Source of the DNA: a virus
Taxonomy: Duplodnaviria > Heunggongvirae > Uroviricota > Caudoviricetes
Strand: one strand, 5' to 3'
Length of the DNA stretch: 46,602 bases
Virus record (IMG/VR): IMGVR_UViG_2724679140_000012
Each line of letters begins with the position of its first letter. The first letter of the stretch is position 1. Shown here one piece after another: positions 2,490 to 30,695 of this stretch. Position numbers and translations under genes: made by a program. Below the pieces are notes generated by a model, which had not been told where the DNA came from, made no database searches, and worked only from the letters and a program-made list of their open reading frames with translations.

Positions 2490-2685
2490 TTCTGATCCTC
2501 TTCAAAAGGCTACCTGTTACTGGTCGATTTAAGTCAACCTTTACCGCTGATTCGTGGAACAGATATTCTCTTCCATCCTTAACCGGAGGAGGGAATATCC
2601 TGCATTCGCGCACCCATCGACGAACTGTTTCAAGGCTTCTTGGGCGTCGCTGGCGAGCGTTCCACTCCTGAAGTGTCAAGTACAT
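2467..2685 (-). CDS. xis: Excisionase, lambda Xis (72 aa)
   Basis: Protein MYLTLQEWNARQRRPRSLETVRRWVRECRIFPPPVKDGREYLFHESAVKVDLNRPVTGSLLKRIRNGKKAKS; overlaps int start as in lambda. Confidence 0.95.
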   Translation of the reverse strand: MYLTLQEWNARQRRPRSLETVRRWVRECRIFPPPVKDGREYLFHESAVKVDLNRPVTGSLLKRIRNGKKAKS

Positions 2686-2724
2686 CGCAAAGTCTCCGCA
2701 ATTACACGCAAGAAAAAACCGCCA

Positions 2725-2892
2725 TCAGGCGGCTTGGTGTTCTTTCAGTTCTTCAATTCGAATATTGGTTATGTCTGCATGTGCTATCTGCGCCCATATC
2801 ATCCAGTGGTCATAGCAGTCATTGATGTCCTCTGCTTCGATAACTCTGTCGAATGGCTCTCCATTCCATTCACCTGTGACTCGGAAGTGCAT
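2725..2892 (-). CDS. Hypothetical small protein, 55 aa (MHFRVTGEWNGEPFDRVIEAEDINDCYDHW...)
   Basis: ATG at 2892-2890 with GGAG 8 nt upstream; TGA at 2727-2725; below the 60-aa cutoff of the ORF track, translated by hand. Confidence 0.5.
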   Translation of the reverse strand: MHFRVTGEWNGEPFDRVIEAEDINDCYDHWMIWAQIAHADITNIRIEELKEHQAA

Positions 2893-2989
2893 TTATCATC
2901 TCCATAAAAAACCGCCGTAGCGAGTTCAGATAAAAGAAATCCCCGCGAGTGCGAGGATTGTTAGTTGCGATCTGCTGCTGCCATGGTCA

Positions 2990-3079
2990 TTACCATATCC
3001 ACCCAATTTCACCAGACATGATTCTCGCAATCACTATCATCACCAAAGTGATAATCACAACTTTAACTGGCGGCATCAT
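2990..3079 (-). CDS. Possible 29-aa hydrophobic micro-ORF (MMPPVKVVIITLVMIVIARIMSGEIGWIW)
   Basis: ATG overlaps the TGA stop of the upstream 406-aa gene (ATGA overlap); single predicted TM helix; no other support. Confidence 0.25.
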   Translation of the reverse strand: MMPPVKVVIITLVMIVIARIMSGEIGWIW

Positions 3080-4296
3080 TCACCATCCTGCTCCGGCGGT
3101 TCTGGCAGCGGCATCCAGTCGGTTACATTGCGACTCTGTGTTTCGAAAAATTCATCACCATTGCGGACAATATCGAAAAACTCTCCGTCTCGATATTGCG
3201 CATAAAGAACGAATGCGCCATCACATAAAATAATTACGTGCTGACCATCATCTGGCATCCGCTCACTACAGCTTATCCAACCATCCGGAATTACCGGAGA
3301 ATTGCCATTTACCAAGTCAGCTCGAACATATAGCGTGTCATCATGGTGCTGATTGTGGCTGCACCACGTTAATTCGCTTAACTCGCCATCTTCTGGCCAT
3401 ACTCCAGCTGTTTGCAGCCAGATATGAGCTGGCGCATCCTGGCAAGGTGTATTAACTGGAAACTTGTAAGTTTGGCTTACAGGTTGGCTACCCTGAAGCA
3501 TGGCAGCGTGGCAGGCATACTCAACGCCCTTAACTGCATCTGCGCAGTAGTTATAGCGATTGCATTCCACTAATTTCCGTTTGAGTTTTTCAATTGCCTG
3601 CGCGACATCAGCCTGTATTACAGGAACTGGCGGAACGGCTGTTTGCTCTCGAACGTCATTAGTCGCTATCGGTTCTGCTGCCAACTGACTGGCATATTTG
3701 TTAATGGTAACGATAAGCTCTTGCTCAGCCTCATCCAGACAATCACCGATACCTCGCCTGTCACCGTCAAAATCATCGAAATCGGCACGAATCTTGGCAA
3801 CCTTCAGGATTGCGGACAACACCTCACTAGGAATTACCGGATAGTTGGTTGACGTTTCCGCGATTTCCCGAAAATTATTGGTTGACGAATTCTTGTTTTC
3901 CCGAAAGTTTCCGGACTGAAGCATGGCGGCGCGGCAGGCGTTCCAGCCTCTCACCTCTGCAATAGCGGCAACAGCATCAACCGCGTACATGCTAAGAGGA
4001 TTAGGCATTGGTTTTTCTTCCGGTACTACTGGCGCTGGAGGGGCGGCGTAAATGCCCTCTATCACTAAATGTTTGCGCTCAAAATCATCTGGCTCTCGAT
4101 GATATACGTAACTCCAATCACCAAGGTTATCATTGCGCCTGCAACGGAAACCTATCGGCTCGACTTCCAGCGCTGCCAGAGCAATTCGTGCCAGTTCTTC
4201 CGCTTCTTCTGCTGGCAGTACAACGTTGCTACCAGGTCCGTATGTTTCGCGCCACTGCTTGATTGTCAGCAGTCGCTCTTTGGTAATAGTGGTCAT
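3076..4296 (-). CDS. Hypothetical prophage protein with C-terminal DUF551-like domain, 406 aa
   Basis: Long minus-strand ORF; C-terminal WISCSERMPDDGQHVIILCDGAFVLYAQYRDGEFFD region resembles DUF551 from memory; internal duplicated motif A(D)AV..AAMLQ(S)G. Confidence 0.8.
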   Translation of the reverse strand: MTTITKERLLTIKQWRETYGPGSNVVLPAEEAEELARIALAALEVEPIGFRCRRNDNLGDWSYVYHREPDDFERKHLVIEGIYAAPPAPVVPEEKPMPNPLSMYAVDAVAAIAEVRGWNACRAAMLQSGNFRENKNSSTNNFREIAETSTNYPVIPSEVLSAILKVAKIRADFDDFDGDRRGIGDCLDEAEQELIVTINKYASQLAAEPIATNDVREQTAVPPVPVIQADVAQAIEKLKRKLVECNRYNYCADAVKGVEYACHAAMLQGSQPVSQTYKFPVNTPCQDAPAHIWLQTAGVWPEDGELSELTWCSHNQHHDDTLYVRADLVNGNSPVIPDGWISCSERMPDDGQHVIILCDGAFVLYAQYRDGEFFDIVRNGDEFFETQSRNVTDWMPLPEPPEQDGE

Positions 4297-4298
4297 AG

Positions 4299-4490
4299 CT
4301 ATTTCACCTTAATCTCAACATTTCGCAGCTTTAGCTCTACTGGCAGGTCTGACTTTCCTGTTAATGCTAATGCGAGATTTTCAGGAGTAATGAGAGCAGT
4401 TATTGTTTTCCCCATCTCCAGACGAATAATCATTCGTATCTCGCGATCGTCACATGCTCCTGGTCGAACAATTGATATTTGTCCGTTCAT
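4299..4490 (-). CDS. Hypothetical protein, 63 aa
   Basis: ATG at 4490-4488 preceded by AGGAGA within the repeated linker (see findings). Confidence 0.6.
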   Translation of the reverse strand: MNGQISIVRPGACDDREIRMIIRLEMGKTITALITPENLALALTGKSDLPVELKLRNVEIKVK

Positions 4491-4491
4491 C

Positions 4492-4989
4492 TCACTCTCC
4501 TTTGATGCGAATGCCAGTGGTACTCATTCTCCTGATTTCCCAGAGCACACGAGGAACACCACCGTTTCCGACCGGATCGCGTTTACTCCGCAGGGCGACG
4601 CTTGATTCCGCCCAGCTTTTTCTTGGAGGAAGCTCTTTCACACGAACAAAACCAGCTGCGCGGAGAGATGCTCCTGATTCATCTGCCTGGGTGTACGTAA
4701 TACAACGTTGATAACCCATAGCCTTTGCTGCCCGCCAGACAGCACCATAAAGCGCGCTGTTAGCGTTGCGTTCTCCTGTGGTACATGTGCGATTTACTTC
4801 AAGCGTTAATCCATCGTCCAAATGTCGTGCAACAGGTCTACCGGCTGTCGCCACACCTATCAATTCTCCGGCATCATTTCTCAGACCAATGCTGAATTTA
4901 TGCCCCACCGGGGGTTTATTGTGTCGGTGATGTCTGGATATAAACGCCTTCGCAACACGAAGAGTAACCGGTGAAATCTGCACTCTCAC
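4492..4989 (-). CDS. Hypothetical protein, 165 aa (GTG start)
   Basis: ORF starts GTG at 4989-4987 with AGGAGA 4-5 nt upstream; C-terminus GIRIKGE identical to the upstream gene's C-terminus. Confidence 0.65.
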   Translation of the reverse strand: MRVQISPVTLRVAKAFISRHHRHNKPPVGHKFSIGLRNDAGELIGVATAGRPVARHLDDGLTLEVNRTCTTGERNANSALYGAVWRAAKAMGYQRCITYTQADESGASLRAAGFVRVKELPPRKSWAESSVALRSKRDPVGNGGVPRVLWEIRRMSTTGIRIKGE

Positions 4990-5852
4990 TCTCCTTTGAT
5001 GCGAATGCCAGCAAGCCAGTTTCTTATGCCGATATATTCAGCGTTCCTGAAACCACTTTTTACATATATAAATGGCAAGCGAAGATTGTGACCATTGACT
5101 GCCAGGTAATCTTTACAACCCTGTTCGGTGAAACAGCAGGTAACGAATTCATCAATATCTTTCACAGCAACGCGCCGCCACTTTTCTGGTGGCTCTCGAA
5201 AGTTTTCGTGAAGTAGTTCGAGACGACGACTTTGGCGTTTATTGGCTTCATTGCCATCTTCATCAACCCAGACAATCCGGTCATAGTCATAATCAGCATC
5301 AACAACGATTTCGCGCTTTTGATACACACAAAACATAGGGTCTGACGTTATTCGATTATCCTGTGTTCGAATATTTTCACCGATGATGCCAAACGAATCT
5401 GGTGCAGATTTTGTCTGCAACTCTTCGATACGTTCAGCCATCGCAGCACACTCTTCAAAGTTGCTTAATGCTTTTCGCTCCCATTCAGCGCATTGTTTTC
5501 TAAGCTCTGCAATCAGCTTGTCTTTGCCTTCAAGCTCAACGCGCAGCTTCCCTACCGTTAGCGCAATATCCTCGTTCTCCTGATCGCGGCGTTTTATGTA
5601 TTGCTGGTTTCTTTCCCGTTCATCCAGCAGCGCCTGCACTACTTCAGGGTTGAAAGCTGCGATATAACGAGCATTAGCAGCAGCTTTTTTCTGTCCATCA
5701 AACCCAGGCCATTTGATAACATCTTCGCATCGTTTATCACCTGGCGTATGCACCGCATACGTACCAGTACCCGGCGAAATAAATGCGACCCATTCGCCCT
5801 GTGTTGCCTGTTTTGCTAACTCACGCAGTGCCTGATAGTCAATCTTGCTCAC
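4986..5852 (-). CDS. Ea22-like early-region protein, 288 aa
   Basis: N-terminus MSKIDYQALRELAKQATQGEW is the Ea22-family signature as I recall it; coiled-coil middle. Confidence 0.8.
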   Translation of the reverse strand: MSKIDYQALRELAKQATQGEWVAFISPGTGTYAVHTPGDKRCEDVIKWPGFDGQKKAAANARYIAAFNPEVVQALLDERERNQQYIKRRDQENEDIALTVGKLRVELEGKDKLIAELRKQCAEWERKALSNFEECAAMAERIEELQTKSAPDSFGIIGENIRTQDNRITSDPMFCVYQKREIVVDADYDYDRIVWVDEDGNEANKRQSRRLELLHENFREPPEKWRRVAVKDIDEFVTCCFTEQGCKDYLAVNGHNLRLPFIYVKSGFRNAEYIGIRNWLAGIRIKGE

Positions 5853-6520
5853 TGGTTGCCTCCTTTGCGAAGCTCTGCGGCGAACTCGTTAAGTGATATG
5901 TAGCAATCTCCAAATGTTAACGAACCGCTCGACTGCATATGCTCCATAGCCATCTCCACGCCCTGCGCCCGTACTTCAGCCAGGAAAGCATCTGTTGCCG
6001 GAGTTTCAGGAATCCGTCTCCTCATCCGTTCTACTGCATGATTGAACCCGAAGTCTTCCGCGAGAGATACGTCATCCATATTGTCATTGTCATCCTCAAT
6101 ATCCCGTGGTTCTGGAATTGCAGACTTTATTCCCGCATTCTCCGCCGCCAGCGCCGCGCGATTACCCTCCAGCTCTGCAATGCGCTGTTTTGCGGTATCA
6201 AGTTCAATCGATAATTTTTCCAACTGCTCTTTATGCTTCTTGTATTCCTGATATGCGTGCCAGGACTGACCTTTGCGCACACTATCAGTAATATCAGTAA
6301 TCTGTTCTGGTGTTAGCGTAGTCAGTGGCTGTGCTGGGAAAATCAGCACTTTCCCGGAATCCCAATCAAAACCAGCGTGAATTGACTGAACCTCAATTGA
6401 AGGTGTTGAACCAACGCTGCCAGGCGAATGAACAACGATCGTTACATCCATATCGCGACGATGGCTGTGGTTATTGGACAAAATACGATTCACCAACTCA
6501 GAAAATTTGGAGAATTTCAT
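5849..6520 (-). CDS. Hypothetical coiled-coil early protein (Ea22-like module), ~223 aa
   Basis: ATG at 6520-6518 with GAGG 6 nt upstream (the track's upstream start at 6532 is TTG); shares TDAFLAE(V/I)RA and ALAAENA motifs with ORF 6936..7544. Confidence 0.7.
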   Translation of the reverse strand: MKFSKFSELVNRILSNNHSHRRDMDVTIVVHSPGSVGSTPSIEVQSIHAGFDWDSGKVLIFPAQPLTTLTPEQITDITDSVRKGQSWHAYQEYKKHKEQLEKLSIELDTAKQRIAELEGNRAALAAENAGIKSAIPEPRDIEDDNDNMDDVSLAEDFGFNHAVERMRRRIPETPATDAFLAEVRAQGVEMAMEHMQSSGSLTFGDCYISLNEFAAELRKGGNQ

Positions 6521-6528
6521 GCGGAGCC

Positions 6529-6939
6529 TCAATATGCAAAATAGACAGTTGCCACACCGTTATAGTGATCAAACGATACGGCGTTTACTTCATAGCTGGC
6601 AGGAAGCTTCGAGCCGAGAACGTATCCGGGCCACGTTTTCCATGGAATTTCTCTACTCTCACTATCCCCATATACCGTACATCCAAGCGAACCTACAGCC
6701 TCGTCAGAACGTTTGCCGCATGTTATGAAACCTATATTTTTCTTGCTGGCCTTAATGGCGATTGGGTGAACACTGGCTGATGCATTGGCAGCACGCTGTG
6801 ACTGTTGGTTTGCGATATTCGCAGAGTTCGCAGCAGCTACAGCAGCCGTGGTCGCGGCGGTAGATGCCACAATAACTGCTGAAGCCTGCGCCTGTTGGGT
6901 AATGGTCAGCAATGCCGCCACAAAAATCATCTTCTTCAC
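6529..6939 (-). CDS. Exported hypothetical protein with cleavable signal peptide, 136 aa
   Basis: N-terminus [19 protein letters not shown] is a textbook Sec signal (K-rich n-region, hydrophobic core, AQA cleavage site); GTG start with GGAG 7 nt upstream; two Cys in mature part. Confidence 0.7.
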   Translation of the reverse strand: MKKMIFVAALLTITQQAQASAVIVASTAATTAAVAAANSANIANQQSQRAANASASVHPIAIKASKKNIGFITCGKRSDEAVGSLGCTVYGDSESREIPWKTWPGYVLGSKLPASYEVNAVSFDHYNGVATVYFAY

Positions 6940-7544
6940 TTGTCAGCTCCTTTGCGAATCTGTTCCGCCCATTCTTCAAGGGATTTCTCCGCATATTCAC
7001 CGGACAGGCCATCAATCGGGTGCGATTCATTAGCCAACTCTTCTTTCGCTGACAGAATCATGCGCGTAACGTCGAAAACTTCACGTAAAGACTTATTGAT
7101 AAATCCGTGGTTGAAAGCAGCAGCAAGACGGCTTGCGGTATAGTTAATCCCCTCGTTGCGAGCCTCCGCACGAATTTCAGCCAGGAAAGCATCGGTGACT
7201 GGGGGTTTGATTTCGTTAAGCGCATCACTGAATCCACCTCTCTCCATACCTAGCTCTGCTTCGTAATCGGCATCGAATGCAGCGTCTTTGCAGAACTTCT
7301 TCAGCTTTGCATTCTCCGCTGCCAGCGCCGAAAACTTCTCGTGTGCCAACTTAACAGCCGAATCAGCCTGCTTAATTGACTCAATCGCTTTCTGTTGGTC
7401 TTCGGACAGAGCTGAAATTTTGGCCTCCGCTTCAGCAAATTTACGCACCAGATATTCAGCGTTTGTTTCGTTAACCTTTAAATCTCGTGGGATGCATTTA
7501 CCTTTCAGAAATCCATCCATCTCAATTAGTGACATTTGTTTCAT
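6936..7544 (-). CDS. Hypothetical coiled-coil early protein (Ea22-like module), 202 aa
   Basis: ORF with coiled-coil heptads; shares [10 protein letters not shown] motif with ORF 5849..6520. Confidence 0.7.
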
Positions 7545-7723
7545 TTTTCCCCACTCCGTAACATCGCATTCAGATATTTGTTTTGATTCACTGATGGAAA
7601 AGAATTTATCTTAAGCAATTCCTCTATCGATGGCATTGGCTTTACGCGTTGGCGAATAATCATTTCTGCCGGAAGAATGCCGGGATTGTATGCAAGTCCT
7701 CTCATGGTAAATTCCTCAGTCAT
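7541..7723 (-). CDS. Possible small protein, ~60 aa (start uncertain)
   Basis: ATG immediately after the upstream stop; no convincing RBS; the track ORF 7541..7858 overlaps the upstream gene. Confidence 0.3.
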
Positions 7724-8012
7724 TACTGATAGCGCCATAACGTGAGCGGTAATTACGAAGGCGCGGGTCGATATATTCAGGGAAGTGGGTATATGTGGCT
7801 TTGCGGAATGGTCGGATTGATGTCTGGTAAATTCGCTCGCGTTCTTCTTTCTCTGCAAGCCATATACAATGGCGAAATTCCTTTTCCTCTTTCGTTTCCT
7901 GCGGTAGAGACATTATCCGGTCGTAGTTTTTTCTGAATTTATCCAGCACCTCCGATATGGAATTGCCGGAACAGCGGCGCGGGTCATCCGCACCATACAG
8001 AGGCGCTGGCAT
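7716..8012 (-). CDS. Hypothetical protein, 98 aa
   Basis: ATG at 8012-8010, weak AAGG upstream; basic C-terminus. Confidence 0.55.
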
Positions 8013-8035: not shown

Positions 8036-8623
8036 TCAGAAAGGAGGGTAATCGTTCTGGCTGTAACCATAATCATCTGCATGATTCTGGCTTACGTTTT
8101 TAGAGCGATTGTCTTTATCTTTGAGGCTGAAAACCATGTTGGCGATAGTTTCTGGTTGCTTGCCTTCCGCCTTTTCTTTAAGTGTTTGGCCTGTTTGTGC
8201 AATAAACGGGATGCGTATTTCCATCTGGTAACTGTCTGCACCAGTCTTTTTGTTTGTGGTTAATACTTTCTGTAGCACTAACCCGATTTTCTTTCCGTGA
8301 AACTCAGGAGCAACAAATTTACTGGCGGAAACCATATGCTGCGTTAATTGTCCAATCCCGGCACACCCCATCATGGCGTGAACGACATTTGCGCCAAATT
8401 TGTTTTCCGTTCCGTCATTTTTCTGAACACAGACGCTAAGATATTGGATTTTACGTCCGTCGTCGGATTCGCCAGAAAACTCAATAAATTTGGCTCCTTT
8501 TTCTGATTGCTTTAGTTCTGCTTCAGTAATGGTAATGATATGAGCGCCAGTTTCGTTAATAAAACCACCTTGCCCTGCGGTCAGTGCTGCTTCTTCGTTA
8601 TAAGTAAAAATCACGTTGCTCAT
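8036..8623 (-). CDS. Putative phage SSB-like protein (DUF669-type partner of Sak4), 195 aa
   Basis: Immediately downstream of and overlapping the Sak4-like gene; acidic C-terminal tail DDYGYSQNDYPPF resembles the SSB acidic tip; family assignment from memory. Confidence 0.55.
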   Translation of the reverse strand: MSNVIFTYNEEAALTAGQGGFINETGAHIITITEAELKQSEKGAKFIEFSGESDDGRKIQYLSVCVQKNDGTENKFGANVVHAMMGCAGIGQLTQHMVSASKFVAPEFHGKKIGLVLQKVLTTNKKTGADSYQMEIRIPFIAQTGQTLKEKAEGKQPETIANMVFSLKDKDNRSKNVSQNHADDYGYSQNDYPPF

Positions 8624-9300
8624 GCGGCGTTTTCCTTAATTTGATGAACATTATTGATGCCGTAGTAATCACAAACAGTGGCATCGACGAAAGAGAGATC
8701 GTTATCAATCTCATTGGAATCAAACATTCCCATTGGGGATTTAACAGTGTCTGCACCGTTGTTTTTCGTGGTGAAAAAGAACTGGTCATCGCGGGTAAGA
8801 GTGCGAAGAACTATAGTAAACATGCCTTCGACAGTGATTTTCTCGTCCAGCATTTTGCCGATAGTTTTCATTTTCACGCGCCCCATAGGGGTTTCTTCGG
8901 TGTGCGCAAGAAAATAGACTCTCAGGTCATCAGGTGCATCCTGTGCAGCCTTAATCACCTCCCATGCGTGGCGGCCTATCTCAGTAAATTTATCAAACGA
9001 TTTTTCTTCTGAGCGGCGCATAAACTCATTGCTCATCACATACTGGAAGTCATCAACAATAACGATTCTTTTCCCGTATTCGTGAGCACGCTTAATTACG
9101 GCAACTATTACGTCCCATTTGTCAGTGGTAACTACGGTTCCTTTTTTTGCTCTGGCATCCCATGCCAGCCAGTCTTTTGATTTAAATGGAAGCGGCTTGC
9201 CTATTGGTTTTATAAGTATTGCTTCCTCTGGATTGATATTTCTCATGCTGGTTGATTTTCCGGTGCCAGACTCACCGAGTATTAATGTCGCAGTTCCCAT
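8620..9300 (-). CDS. Sak4-like RecA-fold ATPase (single-strand annealing recombinase), 226 aa
   Basis: Walker A GESGTGKST near N-terminus and Walker-B-like hydrophobic stretch ending in DD; occupies the recombination slot where Red genes sit in lambda. Confidence 0.7.
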   Translation of the reverse strand: MGTATLILGESGTGKSTSMRNINPEEAILIKPIGKPLPFKSKDWLAWDARAKKGTVVTTDKWDVIVAVIKRAHEYGKRIVIVDDFQYVMSNEFMRRSEEKSFDKFTEIGRHAWEVIKAAQDAPDDLRVYFLAHTEETPMGRVKMKTIGKMLDEKITVEGMFTIVLRTLTRDDQFFFTTKNNGADTVKSPMGMFDSNEIDNDLSFVDATVCDYYGINNVHQIKENAA

Positions 9301-9961: not shown

Positions 9962-10585
9962 TTATGCGACCTCGGAAGGAAGTCCAATCATCTTATTCAA
10001 ATCTTCTACCCGTAAAGCAGGAAGTGCTGCACTTGCTTTATCTGCTTCTTTTGGTAGCAACTCTTTGCTTTCAGGCCAGACCTCAATAAGTCGCTTAACT
10101 GTTGTGACTGAGTTCAAAGCAGCCCATACATTTGATTCGATATCCTTTTTCCTGGCTTCAAGTTTTTGTTGCAATGCGCAGATTTCATCAAACCTTTTTG
10201 TTATTTTGTGTTCTGCGTCAAACATGCATTTATCTTGGTCGGGGGTAGGGAGCAATATATCTTCACCGTTGCCGTCTTTTCCGTATGAATGCCAGCCAAC
10301 CCTTCTTCCTGATACAGTCAGATAAATCGAACTTGAACGGGCATCGCATGAGTAAAATGAACATCCCAGCTTTTCAAGTTCTTCGCTTATAGCCATTAAC
10401 TTGGATGCCAGCTGGTCCACTTCCTCAGTTTTCTTTTTCCCGCCAAACGCAACAACTCTGGCATCAAGTGCAAGCTGGTTCTTTAACTTTGTTACTTCTT
10501 CAAGTTCAGTGAATACCCCGGACTTAATTAAAGCGTTGCGTGCTATTACTTCTTTTATTGTCGTAGTTAAGCGGATTGATGACAT
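9962..10585 (-). CDS. Hypothetical protein, 207 aa
   Basis: ATG at 10585-10583 with GAGAGGA upstream; the track's longer ORF has an N-terminal extension without RBS. Confidence 0.7.
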   Translation of the reverse strand: MSSIRLTTTIKEVIARNALIKSGVFTELEEVTKLKNQLALDARVVAFGGKKKTEEVDQLASKLMAISEELEKLGCSFYSCDARSSSIYLTVSGRRVGWHSYGKDGNGEDILLPTPDQDKCMFDAEHKITKRFDEICALQQKLEARKKDIESNVWAALNSVTTVKRLIEVWPESKELLPKEADKASAALPALRVEDLNKMIGLPSEVA

Positions 10586-10721
10586 ATTAATTCCTCTCAA
10601 ATAAGTGGTTTGCTGCCTAATTTCATTTTCTGGCGACCAACACAAGTCACACCCATTTCACTGCGTGGCTTGCGGTAGTAAATACGGTTATTTATGTCAT
10701 TAAAAACCAGCATGAGCGTGG

Positions 10722-10990: not shown

Positions 10991-11299
10991 CTATCTCGCC
11001 GTAATTGATTTCATTGACCTGTAACCAGCAGCATACAGTGCAACTTCAGGCAAACAAACGCTTCCGCCATTCGCATCTGTATTTGATTTACTGATGATGC
11101 CGAGTGATATTGCTTTTTCAGAAAGACTTAAACGCTTTCTCGGTTCTTCCTGAACAGCTTCCTCACTGTCTGTGCCGAAGATCGAATCGATGATGTTGCA
11201 GATGGAATCACGCTCGATAGCCAGCTTTCTGCGCCGCTCATGACGGCGAGTTTTGGCATTTCCTGCAAATGTTGATTTTCCGTACACGATTACCGTCAT
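10991..11299 (-). CDS. N: N-type transcription antiterminator, P22 gene-24-like
   Basis: N-terminal arginine-rich motif GNAKTRRHERRRKLAIERD matches the P22 N ARM peptide; ATG at 11299-11297 with GAGGAA 6 nt upstream; matching boxB upstream. Confidence 0.9.
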   Translation of the reverse strand: MTVIVYGKSTFAGNAKTRRHERRRKLAIERDSICNIIDSIFGTDSEEAVQEEPRKRLSLSEKAISLGIISKSNTDANGGSVCLPEVALYAAGYRSMKSITAR

Positions 11300-11418
11300 G
11301 ATGTTTTCCTCATGTGAAATGGCTTTGGTGGTGATGCGCCAGGTGCTGATCTTCTGGTTGCTGTCGTTGCAGCTGCAATTCACATCACCGCCAAACCCAT
11401 CTCGTTTGGTATCTGTTT

Positions 11419-12433: not shown

Positions 12434-13141
12434 TCACGAATTTTTCAGCCACTCCCTTGCCTCGATGTCATCCAGATGACGAGATTGCTTCAGAATACCA
12501 GCCACATACTCCACCTTTGCTACTTGATGATAAGGCAACGTTATTGGCCTGTGGTCTTGGTTGATGCTTGTAAACTGGTATTCTCCATCTCTGTCATAGC
12601 CAAGAATCTTGATCATGTTGTGTCCTTCGATGGTTCTGACAAACACCTCATCACCCGGGAAGACTTTGGTGTTAGGCTCAATGAGTACATATTCTCCTGA
12701 TTTTATTCTGGGCCACATGCTGTCTCCTTTCACACGAAGACCAAAGGCATCAGGATCATCGCTATAAATTTTGAGCCACCCATCGCGCTCTTCGGTCATC
12801 TCGATGGCACCATCAACACCAAGAATTGCCTCACCAACCACGCGCACTAACCCTTTTTTTAATTTGCCAACAAATGAAAGAGTATCTTCATCATTCGCTC
12901 CATTTAACGAAGTGCCGTGCTGAAGCCAAACAACATCAACGTTTAGAAATTTCGCAAGCGCATTCATTTTTTCCTGACGCGGTAAAGACTCAGCATTAAA
13001 CCATTTGCTAACGCCTTTGGACGAAAGAGAAAGGGCACGGGCTATGGCCATCCCCCTACCATGTTCATCAAGACCAGCTTCTTTACAGGCTTGCGCTAGC
13101 CGCTGGGCGAATTCTTTGCGCACTTTTTCATTCTGAACCAT
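12434..13141 (-). CDS. cI: CI-type prophage repressor (HTH + S24 LexA-like peptidase domain), 235 aa
   Basis: C-terminal GDSMWPRIKSGEYVLIEP autocleavage-domain motif; N-terminal HTH; divergent from cro across an operator region. Confidence 0.9.
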   Translation of the reverse strand: MVQNEKVRKEFAQRLAQACKEAGLDEHGRGMAIARALSLSSKGVSKWFNAESLPRQEKMNALAKFLNVDVVWLQHGTSLNGANDEDTLSFVGKLKKGLVRVVGEAILGVDGAIEMTEERDGWLKIYSDDPDAFGLRVKGDSMWPRIKSGEYVLIEPNTKVFPGDEVFVRTIEGHNMIKILGYDRDGEYQFTSINQDHRPITLPYHQVAKVEYVAGILKQSRHLDDIEAREWLKNS

Positions 13142-13882: not shown

Positions 13883-14044
13883 ATGACAAAACGTCGTAAG
13901 AAATACCAGGAAAAAGAAGAGATTCGACACCCTGATTCACCTGAGGGATTAGTGGTAGCCGCAGCAAATAACAGGACGTTCGCAGAGCGCCTTGTTGGTG
14001 TTTACAGACTAGCCAAAGCAGGAGTGAAACATGGGTGTCGTTAA
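13883..14044 (+). CDS. Possible small protein, 53 aa (MTKRRKKYQEKEEIRHPDSPEG...)
   Basis: ATG at 13883 with CAGGAG upstream; overlaps the 14031 start of the O-like ORF. Confidence 0.4.
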   Translation: MTKRRKKYQEKEEIRHPDSPEGLVVAAANNRTFAERLVGVYRLAKAGVKHGCR

Positions 14045-14921
14045 GTTAGCTGATTACAGGCATAACCCTGTACAACATCAGGAGGCATCCAGTATGGGGT
14101 ATGTCTCTATACACCGCCAGTTTATGGACAGCAGGCTCTATAAGGACTCTCAGGCAGTACATCTTTGGCTTCACTTAATCCTCAAGGCTAATCACGAATC
14201 TACTGTCGTCAATACGGATATCGGGCCGATAACTGTTGATCGCGGTCAGATGATAACTGGACGCCCGTCGCTGGTCAGAGAAACATTCATCCCAGACAAC
14301 AAAGTTCGGAGCTTATTACGGACTTTTGAGTCGAAAGGGATGCTTAATATTTGCTCGATGGGGAAGAAATTTAGCCTGTTTACAATCGTTAAATATGACG
14401 ATTTTCAGGCAAAAAATTGTCCAACGGTTGTCCAACGGTTGTCCAACGCAAACACCAGTAATGGCGCGGCTCTCAGCGGAGATTGTCCAACGGTTGTCCA
14501 ACGGTTGTCCATAAACAATAATATAAATAATATCTCTAATACTGACGTATTAGAGAGTACCGCAGCAGACAAAAAGTCTGACAAGAAAAAACCTTCCGTT
14601 AGCTGTCAGGATGTTGTCGATGCTTACCACGAAATCCTTCCTGAAGCGCCAAAAATCCGCGCACTGAATGACAAGCGTAAAAACCAGATCCGAACGTTCT
14701 GGCGCAAAGCCGGAGTGATAACCCGCCAGCTTGACGGGCATGGGTTCACGATGCAGGACTGGAGAAATTATTTGAGCTACGTAGGCGAAAATTGCCGATG
14801 GATGTTCGAAGAGCGTCCAAACCATCAACGCGGAACCGTCTGGCACAAAAAGGGATTTGATTTCCTGCTTAACGACAATACCTACCTGAAAGTTCGTGAG
14901 GGTGAACACGATGACCGATAA
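14031..14921 (+). CDS. Replication initiator, lambda O / P22 gene-18-like (alternative start at 14094)
   Basis: Contains the origin iterons inside the coding sequence (encoding repeated CPTVVQRLS peptide), as in lambda O; both candidate starts have Shine-Dalgarno sequences. Confidence 0.85.
   Translation: MGVVKLADYRHNPVQHQEASSMGYVSIHRQFMDSRLYKDSQAVHLWLHLILKANHESTVVNTDIGPITVDRGQMITGRPSLVRETFIPDNKVRSLLRTFESKGMLNICSMGKKFSLFTIVKYDDFQAKNCPTVVQRLSNANTSNGAALSGDCPTVVQRLSINNNINNISNTDVLESTAADKKSDKKKPSVSCQDVVDAYHEILPEAPKIRALNDKRKNQIRTFWRKAGVITRQLDGHGFTMQDWRNYLSYVGENCRWMFEERPNHQRGTVWHKKGFDFLLNDNTYLKVREGEHDDR
14417..14556. repeat. Replication origin: two blocks of three TTGTCCAACGG iterons followed by an AT-rich region
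   Basis: Direct repeats at 14417-14449 and 14482-14512, then AAACAATAATATAAATAATATCTCTAATA. Confidence 0.85.
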
Positions 14922-29654: not shown

Positions 29655-30695
29655 ATGAATAACGCAGAATTTTTACAACATAAAGCTATGGCTGAGCGAG
29701 ATTACGGTGTAATCCTTCCGGAAGCCAAAGCCTATCTGACGGATGCTGTTGCTAATAGCTATTCCTATGCAATGGACTCTCAGCCTTCACTGGTAACAAC
29801 CAGCAACTCTGGCATTCCATGGTACTTCACTAATTACGTTGACCCGGAACTGATTCGCATCCTTGTCACTCCGATGAAAGCGGTGGAAATTCTTGGGGAA
29901 ACGAAGAAGGGAGACTGGACCACCATGACCGCACAATTCCCGGTTGTGGAATCAACGGGTCAGGTTTCCAGTTATGGTGACTACAACAATAATGGGCAGG
30001 TAAATGCTAACGTCAACTGGGTTGCTCGTGAGTCCTATCTGTACCAGACCATTACTCAGTGGGGTGAGCTGGAGCTTGACCGTTACGGTGAAGGCCGCAT
30101 TGCATGGGCTCAACAACTGAATACGGCTTCTGCGCTGACCCTGAATAAGTTTCAGAACAAGTCCTACTTCTTCGGCGTTGCTGGTCTGAAGAACTACGGC
30201 ATTCTGAATGACCCTAACCTTCCGGCATCAATCACCCCGGGCGCAACGGGTACTGGCAGTGGAACTACCTGGGCAACTAAAGACGGTCAGGCGGTGTATG
30301 ACGATATCCAGGCGCTTTACATGCAGTTAGTGAAGCAGACCAAGGGGTACGTTGAGCGAGACAGCAAGATGACGCTGGCGATGAGTCCAGAGTCAGAAGC
30401 AAATCTGACCAAGACCAACATGTACAACGTCAACGTGTCTGATCAGCTGAAGAAAAACTTCCCGAACCTGCGCGTTGTTACTGCTGTCGAGTACAAAACC
30501 GAATCCGGCGAACTGGTTCAGTTGATCGCCGACGATCTGGATGGTCAGGACACCGGATACTGCGCATTTACCGAAAAAATGCGTGCACATCCGGTTGTAG
30601 TTGATCTGTCCGCGTATAAACAAAAGAAAACCGGTGGCACCTGGGGCGCAATCATTCGCCAGCCGCTGGCATTTGCAAGCATGTTGGGAGTTTAA
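29655..30695 (+). CDS. Putative major capsid protein, 346 aa
   Basis: Size and position after scaffold and decoration genes with strong RBS; family inferred from synteny. Confidence 0.7.

Follow-up and report, generated by a model that had tools for sequence, protein, structure and literature searches.

Conserved boundary 'linker' sequences are reportedly a feature of the junctions between modules in lambdoid phages, both in Botstein's modular theory of 1980 and in the account of HK620 given by Clark et al. in 2001. Morons are said, following Juhala et al. in 2000, to be single-gene insertions between conserved phage genes; the classic ones bring their own promoter and terminator and are without flanking repeats. 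Here we describe a short sequence, called the linker below, that lies as an exact direct repeat at two successive gene junctions in a lambdoid prophage of 46,602 nucleotides (nt) from IMG/VR virus record IMGVR_UViG_2724679140_000012, the whole of which is referred to as the window. The linker ends one gene, carries the ribosome-binding site of the next and probably also serves as a short-homology crossover point between phages.

Several other described systems are relevant to such a sequence. Relaxed homologous recombination accounts for the mosaics found among temperate E. coli phages and defective prophages, in which the median mosaic length is 404-494 base pairs (bp) (Martinsohn et al. 2008, PMC2327257; De Paepe et al. 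2014, PMC3945230). Efficient pairing is reported to need at least 23-27 bp with Red-beta and 31-34 bp with RecA, and mosaics between lambda and resident prophages depend experimentally on such recombinases, arising mainly by homologous exchange on short or diverged homology; whether phage mosaics form via short conserved junctions or by random illegitimate joining is still debated (PMC3945230). The PeSL 'mobile regulatory cassettes' of T4-type phages consist of an early promoter and a stem-loop terminator, and recombination between their copies leads to insertion, deletion and replacement of genes, with neighbouring copies yielding mini-circles (Arbiol et al. 2010, PMC2839356). For Ea22, the protein family most often found next to the linker, the published nuclear magnetic resonance study reports mosaic C-terminal domains that 'bear no similarity' except for one 16-amino-acid segment, and leaves the tail unmentioned (PMC10834534).

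The window contains an exact 28-bp direct repeat at 4490-4517 and 4984-5011, with the minus strand as the coding strand. Identity stops at 28 bp, the flanks of the two copies being unrelated beyond. Within the window the 27-mer CTCACTCTCCTTTGATGCGAATGCCAG is present in exactly two copies, at 4491-4517 and 4985-5011 on the plus strand; no further copy was found there with up to three mismatches allowed, none of 100 dinucleotide shuffles of the window contained it, and by simple arithmetic an exact pair of 28-mers is expected by chance about 1e-8 times in 46.6 kb. Read on the minus strand, the repeat is CTGGCATTCGCATCAAAGGAGAGTGAGA; it encodes (A/T)-G-I-R-I-K-G-E-stop and contains AAGGAG(A). Copy 1 (4984-5011) thus encodes the ...LAGIRIKGE end and the TGA of a 288-amino-acid Ea22-like open reading frame (ORF) and provides AAGGAG for a gene of the XF1762 or Mom-like family, while the identical copy 2 (4490-4517) encodes the ...TTGIRIKGE end and the TGA of that second gene and provides both AAGGAG and the first base of the ATG of a 63-amino-acid gene; in each case the AAGGAG lies just 5' of the following start codon. 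The first-pass annotation had described a 27-bp repeat at gene junctions, each copy encoding GIRIKGE-stop together with a Shine-Dalgarno sequence for the next gene, and the minus-strand reading of both copies bears this out, with the identity running one base longer. It had also noted that two unrelated genes, of 288 and 165 amino acids, end identically; the genes are indeed unrelated, since one is recognized by Pfam Ead_Ea22 and the other by NCBIfam XF1762, and they do share their tail, but the second is likely to be 163 amino acids long.

The first of these genes (4986-5852, minus strand) combines an Ea22 N-terminal and coiled-coil region with a C-terminal module of the type called C3 below and the shared tail; its residues 2-125 match Pfam PF13935 (Ead_Ea22) at 124.8 bits against a gathering cut-off of 27, which places it among the ead/Ea22-like genes. 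The second (4492-4983, minus strand) matches NCBIfam NF045478 at 204.7 bits (5e-61, cut-off 50), and so belongs to the XF1762 family, and PHROG 1384 'Mom-like' at 4e-42. The family goes by the name 'Mom-like DNA modification protein' in PHROGs and in RefSeq phage records, and the match to Pfam Mom, at 22.4 bits (1e-4), lies under the cut-off of 27.1; we regard the gene as a putative DNA-modification, perhaps anti-restriction, gene and as no more than a candidate for the Mom family proper. The 165-amino-acid ORF is the maximal reading frame, opening with a GTG at 4989 that overlaps the upstream stop. A start at GTG 4983, for a protein of 163 amino acids, is more likely: this codon lies 7 nt after GGAG, and an ATG stands there in the identical gene of phage PhiR44_2. 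The last 11 residues of the XF1762 protein, MSTTGIRIKGE, are an extension: gp36 of Pectobacterium phage ZF40, a 72%-identical homologue, ends with ...WEVRR, and alignments with more distant homologues break off near residue 150, so that on this comparison the GIRIKGE tail is an add-on and not native to the protein. The extension begins (4518-4535, minus strand) as ...AGGAGA ATG AGT ACC ACT (R-R-M-S-T-T), which resembles the ribosome-binding site and MTT/MST start typical of the DUF551-type genes often found 3' of the linker; more speculatively, this could be the fossil of a fusion event. The third gene, of 63 amino acids (4299-4490, minus strand; PHROG 1222), is the gene most frequently found 3' of the linker and is called D1 below.

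An exact-match scan of viral contigs gave at least 120 loci, and the 27-mer is positioned at a stop/start junction in at least 120 of these contigs, so that it is conserved as a boundary sequence well outside the window. It is also, without a mismatch, the very 3' end of ea22 in lambda itself (NC_001416, complement 29846-29872). The 31-nt version that includes the ATG has 1398 occurrences in complete E. coli genomes (1122 of 5426 have it, with up to five occurrences per genome and 70 on plasmids) and is found as well in 149 deposited phage genomes, nearly all of them from Escherichia phages (lambda, HK633 and many Stx phages among them); on one 110-kb plasmid the linker lies between an Ea22-like gene and a gene for a ClpX-zinc-finger protein. 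The exact lambda ea22 linker, annotated as 'Ea22 protein', is found too in OQ055246.1 (Xanthomonas phage vB_XooS_NR08) and in one Campylobacter phage record, both of which probably reflect lambda DNA contamination or chimeric assemblies.

The genes joined by the linker vary widely. Counts of partners and pairings are given here and below among the matches listed. Of the upstream ORFs, 117 of 120 are Ea22-like and three are XF1762 genes. The Ea22-like genes have only their N-terminal and coiled-coil half in common, while their last 60 residues fall into seven classes, C1 to C7, that are not related by BLAST; C5 is the class of lambda Ea22, C3, that of the window, has at least 15 loci, and all end in the same tail. 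With XF1762 included, this makes eight mutually unrelated C-terminal modules upstream. Downstream there are 12 unrelated gene families, of which D1 is the commonest, followed by D2, a 251-amino-acid DpdA-like protein (PHROG 887 'queuine tRNA-ribosyltransferase', 2e-103; for example at loci L002 and L073); D3 comprises DUF551 proteins (at least 14 loci) and D4 is the ClpX-zinc-finger protein. C1 is paired with D1, D2, D3 and D7, C2 with D1, D2, D9 and D12, and C4 with D2, D3, D4 and D10, and for three module pairs all four combinations are seen, meaning that the two sides of the linker have been reassorted. D2 is likely to be another DNA-modification gene, and the cargo adjoining the linker may therefore be enriched in anti-restriction functions. 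The first-pass annotation had taken the repeat for a portable linker of mosaic early regions, to be sought at other gene boundaries in related phages and to be expected between varying flanks. It was found at many such boundaries, in viral contigs, E. coli genomes and phage records alike, and the flanks do vary on both sides while the linker stays. The idea of portability survives in the varied partners and in the edge breakpoints and moving cassette described next, but is limited by an upstream side that is almost exclusively Ea22-like.

Homology is repeatedly interrupted at the linker. When window positions 4300-5200 were compared by BLAST with phages and E. coli genomes, matches ended at query positions 215-217 or started at 681-686, both of which are linker positions, so that breakpoints and linker coincide. 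In a second sample, gathered via the downstream 63-amino-acid protein to avoid ascertainment by the motif itself, the 27-mer is exact in 50 of 82 loci and has one or two substitutions, both synonymous and non-synonymous, in about 12; a further 19 loci have a 5'-diverged version ending ...NIGIKGE-stop and one retains the ribosome-binding part alone. Among the unique sequences of this sample, nucleotide diversity is 0.6-0.7 upstream and drops to 0.02 on reaching the linker's 5' edge. An exact tract of 27-43 bp (median 32) is common to loci in which upstream module and downstream gene are both different, with the downstream genes joined exactly at the ATG and right extensions of 3-4 nt. A 'short' linker (…AACATTGGCATCAAAGGAGAGTGAG) was considered as a 6-bp deletion of the long one, a reading that was dropped because the L208 variant AACATTCGCATC… favours a gapless alignment in which the tail is N-I-[G/R]-I-K-G-E and the 3' 18-22 nt are in common. 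A search of genome contigs with the 63-amino-acid protein gave two loci, too small a number for a taxonomic range to be drawn. At locus L122 (CACSKA010000005.1), a gene 76% identical to the 63-amino-acid gene follows the tail ...IRAAGIALDTGE-stop, with only the 5' part of the linker kept; the label of that contig, Chryseobacterium sp., is doubtful for an enterobacterial-type prophage region, and it is possibly a contaminant.

The XF1762 gene behaves as a cassette bounded by the two copies. In at least 11 empty-site loci among the matches listed, the C3-type Ea22 end is followed by one linker and then directly by D1; the flanks are 93-99% identical to the window and the locus is exactly 494 bp shorter, that is, it lacks the 466 bp unique to the insertion/deletion unit (4518-4983) plus one linker copy. 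One E. coli genome correspondingly covers the query as two pieces over 407 bp, which is 901 minus 494. The identical filled arrangement, with the same spacing, was found in one metagenomic viral contig (L111/L124) and in none of the 5426 complete E. coli genomes, where empty-site and partial arrangements are common. The gene has also been relocated. At 99.2% DNA identity it is present in the P2-like phage PhiR44_2 and in P2-like prophages, including one in ST131, where it lies between a replication gene and a portal gene, homology ends at the linkers, and the neighbours are different ones: upstream a 104-amino-acid gene ending ...NIGIKGE-stop, downstream an 87-amino-acid gene. It is found again in an STY4528-type genomic island (L208), between linker versions, and at L101 it follows another Ea22 tail, ...AAGIKEESE-stop. 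As in PeSL cassettes, then, the copies flank a small accessory gene and bound its insertion or deletion. This Mom-like gene is nearly identical across lambdoid prophages, P2-like prophages and the STY4528-type island (loci L205, L206 and L208).

Taken together, we put at roughly 0.7 the probability that the linker is a dual-purpose junction module, gene end and ribosome-binding site in one, that serves as a short-homology crossover point. The module is part of the leftward early (exo-xis or 'ea') accessory region in temperate phages of Escherichia. The sequence itself shows that one ORF is ended by the linker and that the next is given a Shine-Dalgarno sequence and close stop/start spacing: AAGGAG lies 7-8 nt 5' of the start codon, which in turn is 1-5 nt after the stop. 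With so strong a Shine-Dalgarno so near the start, whatever gene follows should therefore be translated; its translation would probably be coupled to that of the upstream gene. Since the same 27-43 bp tract occurs at many junctions of co-infecting and resident prophages, it can also act as a crossover site, being at or just above the Red-beta minimum for pairing and close to the RecA one. One crossover within the linker would give a phage with its left arm from one parent and its right arm from the other, and such crossovers would reshuffle Ea22 C-terminal modules on the left and accessory genes on the right. The arrangement in the window would be the outcome of 'X - linker - XF1762 - linker - D1' meeting 'Ea22(C3) - linker - D1'. 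If the two direct copies recombined with each other, the gene would be lost again, the empty site restored and a 494-bp circle released, and any linker could then take the circle up. Each new gene probably became attached to a linker in the first place through an illegitimate or microhomology event, with selection afterwards favouring joints that gave a working start. That homologous recombination lies behind the later joints, and through which recombinase, we infer from the comparative patterns; the window itself codes for a Sak4-like annealing protein and an Abc2 anti-RecBCD protein.

A more ambitious version of the same idea makes the linker the cis-element of an integrase-free cassette-exchange system, with mini-circles excised by linker-by-linker annealing and re-inserted at any linker. 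The cargo would consist of small accessory genes and anti-restriction genes, such as the Mom-like XF1762 gene and those for the DpdA-like transglycosylase, the ClpX-zinc-finger protein and others, each carrying or adjoining a copy. If this were true, cargo genes would move in this way between lambdoid phages, P2-like phages, phage-plasmids and genomic islands, and translational coupling would guarantee their expression wherever they landed. We hold this version to be a tentative possibility that is probably not correct as stated.

A number of points weigh against the linker as a crossover device. It is not general on its upstream side, where with few exceptions (the XF1762 gene and one family of 104/132 amino acids) it is the 3' end of an ead/Ea22-like gene, and, with the upstream side almost confined to one family, the spread of the linker is in part accounted for by shared ancestry of the ea22 3' end. 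The viral-contig sample was picked by exact match, and its counts are not independent events because many of the contigs are E. coli prophages possibly related by descent. In the sample gathered via the 63-amino-acid gene, diversity in the linker (0.025) is about the same as in the D1 gene (0.035). The diverged cassette of L208 is 89% identical to that of the window, and its 3' linker has 4 changes in 27 as against 11% for the gene, with the tail altered to ...TTVIHIKGE (G to V, R to H) and the Shine-Dalgarno sequence changed as well; hyper-conservation of the linker relative to its neighbours was looked for both in that sample and in L208 and was not found. Because the linker in L208 has drifted about as much as the cassette, it seems to be under no exceptional constraint. 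There is thus no sign of its upkeep as a recombination device, and it may perhaps be simply the sole homology on offer. All the support for recombination is comparative, no event having been observed, and the window's own recombinase is of the Sak4 type, whereas the pairing minima we cite are those of Red-beta and RecA.

Several of these points would equally suit a passive relic. Under the Hendrix/Juhala model, illegitimate recombination occurs anywhere and selection keeps those joints that preserve gene ends; the 27-mer would then be no more than an inherited ea22 3' end with its efficient ribosome-binding site, retained because the next gene has to be translated, and the linker would mark the boundaries of joints that were made illegitimately without itself bringing about exchange. 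The Ea22-like identity of 117 of the 120 upstream genes is what such descent would leave, the 3' half of the linker has the canonical arrangement of Shine-Dalgarno sequence, stop and start, the downstream joints fall exactly at the ATG with extensions of only 3-4 nt, as if selected for function, and the sequence drifts in L208. But joints made illegitimately would not be expected to leave an identical tract of 27-43 bp time after time, synonymous sites and the 14 bases outside the Shine-Dalgarno sequence included, and this tract is found between eight unrelated upstream modules and 12 downstream genes among the matches listed. The cassette, moreover, is bounded on both sides by linker versions in lambdoid phages, in P2-like phages and in the island; its empty and filled alleles differ by exactly one repeat unit; and lambda mosaics form mainly by recombinase-dependent homologous exchange (PMC3945230). 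We therefore consider a purely passive origin unlikely.

A second alternative places the selection on the peptide, with GIRIKGE as a C-terminal tag for, say, partner binding, degradation or oligomerization and the identity of the DNA secondary to it; Ea22-like proteins would require the tag and the XF1762 protein would have gained it. The same seven to nine residues do end proteins whose C-terminal domains are otherwise unrelated. What is conserved, however, is the nucleotide sequence, which hardly varies even at synonymous positions across the E. coli phage pool, and the few variants are non-synonymous as often as synonymous (I to T, R to S); related tails read NIGIKGE, NIRIKGE, GIKEESE, VIHIKGE and, at L122, GIALDTGE, and XF1762 homologues in other phages are without the tail altogether. 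The structure of lambda Ea22 puts the dimer interface and a candidate ligand loop on other residues (PMC10834534). A functional tag accordingly seems to us very improbable.

It is harder still to see the linker as a site for a dedicated enzyme, be it an att- or attC-like site or the target-site duplication of a transposon, in spite of a direct repeat that flanks a single-gene insertion and an empty site that exists. Neither dyad symmetry nor a hairpin was found in the linker, which has none of the integron features (imperfect inverted repeat hairpin, IntI, attI); terminal inverted repeats were looked for and not found, the cassette consists of the one XF1762 ORF only, and no transposase or integron integrase was found near the linker, the only tyrosine recombinase found in the window being the lambda-type integrase at 1419-2489. 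The linker lies inside resident genes at more than 1000 sites that lack the cassette, and 28 bp is, to our knowledge, far longer than known target-site duplications. Such an origin is highly implausible. An RNA element at the junction was likewise tried and rejected: both copies and the bare 28-mer fold no better than shuffles (z -0.25 to -0.75), and Rfam, searched over 2500-8000 at E<=1, gave no match at the linker and only a sub-threshold flpD match elsewhere. Finally, a local tandem duplication confined to this genome, suggested by two identical copies 494 bp apart, can practically be dismissed, as the sequence between and around the copies is not duplicated and the linker is widespread between different genes, which refutes that reading.

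The linker is not alone of its kind, a caveat to any reading of it: a k-mer and flank-diversity scan of 3000-7700 revealed several further short conserved islands in the region. One of them, at 5820-5874 (minus strand), is again a gene junction, where ...LRKGGNQ-stop overlaps the GTG with which the following Ea22-like gene (MSKIDYQALRE) begins; in other loci it is retained between flanks that bear no relation to one another, and the ...LRKGGNQ tail also ends other ORFs in L101. Some islands lie within genes, where they coincide with domain boundaries of Ea22-like and DUF551 genes and likewise have unrelated flanks in other loci: 5957-5992 and 7168-7197, 6132-6156 and 7309-7330, 3916-3949, 3461-3504 and 3260-3300. 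Two paralogous Ea22-like genes provide the examples TDAFLAE(V/I)RA and AALAAENA, another example is the beginning of the DUF551 domain, and an 18-mer is repeated at 5975 and 7176. The in-gene islands suggest domain-level shuffling by the same route as at the linker.

In the window, the linker is situated between int and the recombination genes; this is the leftward early accessory region, which corresponds to the exo-xis or 'ea' region of lambda and P22. Beyond D1 comes a 406-amino-acid gene with a DUF551 domain (3076-4296, minus strand; Pfam PF04448), of the D3 type that directly follows the linker in other phages. To the other side are the P22-type Abc2 anti-RecBCD protein (7716-8012), the Sak4-like annealing protein (8620-9300), N (10991-11383) and a CI-like repressor (12434-13141). 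A 227-amino-acid protein of the early left operon (9962-10645, minus strand) has a strong match to Pfam Nmad5, nucleotide modification associated domain 5 (4e-69). At 14416-14505, within a 296-amino-acid ORF (14031-14921), the 11-bp unit TTGTCCAACGG is repeated both in tandem and at dispersed positions; the repeats are probably origin iterons in an O-like replication gene. Between two Ea22-like genes lies a 136-amino-acid ORF (6529-6939, minus strand) with a signal-peptide-like N-terminus and no Pfam match, which may be a moron-type insertion.

The locus offers a compact, bench-ready test case: its identity tract is defined (27-43 bp), lies at the threshold for pairing by recombinases and occurs in lambda itself; alleles with and without the cassette exist in nature; and four kinds of mobile element carry the same cassette. 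It suggests a route by which anti-restriction genes, such as those for the Mom-like and DpdA-like enzymes, spread among E. coli prophages. For those who study Ea22, it adds that all variants of the C-terminal domain end in one nucleotide-identical tail, apparently unreported.

The kind of feature is thus a familiar one, through the modular theory, boundary sequences, relaxed recombination and PeSL cassettes, while this particular instance appears to be undescribed; a literature search for the tail sequence GIRIKGE or for the linker turned up no description. The linker resembles PeSL in placing repeated short regulatory sequences around small accessory genes in plastic regions, and the PeSL mini-circle parallels the predicted 494-bp circle; it differs in that neither a promoter nor a terminator was found at the linker, compared with the strong early promoter and stem-loop terminator of PeSL, and in being a gene end and Shine-Dalgarno sequence within an operon. 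Integron cassettes likewise consist of a promoterless single gene between repeated sites, with occupied and empty states and expression driven from an upstream promoter, but they use an imperfect palindrome, attC, and IntI, which are missing here, and the present repeat is inside coding sequence. As with morons, relatives differ at one and the same position in whether they carry the accessory gene, here a Mom-like one; unlike classic morons, the XF1762 cassette is without promoter and terminator and is bracketed by a 28-bp direct repeat. Relaxed homologous recombination works on about 23-34 bp of identity, and the cassette unit of 494 bp compares with its median mosaic of 404-494 bp; the published exchanges, though, were measured in longer diverged regions (PMC2327257; PMC3945230), whereas here the homology is a 28-mer and the recombinase is Sak4-like, not Red-beta. 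With the lambdoid boundary sequences the linker has in common a short sequence at module boundaries, varied modules on either side and breakpoints located there. It differs from them in being partly coding, as the last seven to nine codons of a gene, and in doubling as the ribosome-binding site of the next; it is, in addition, tied mainly to the ea22 family and occurs twice in one genome around a single-gene cassette.

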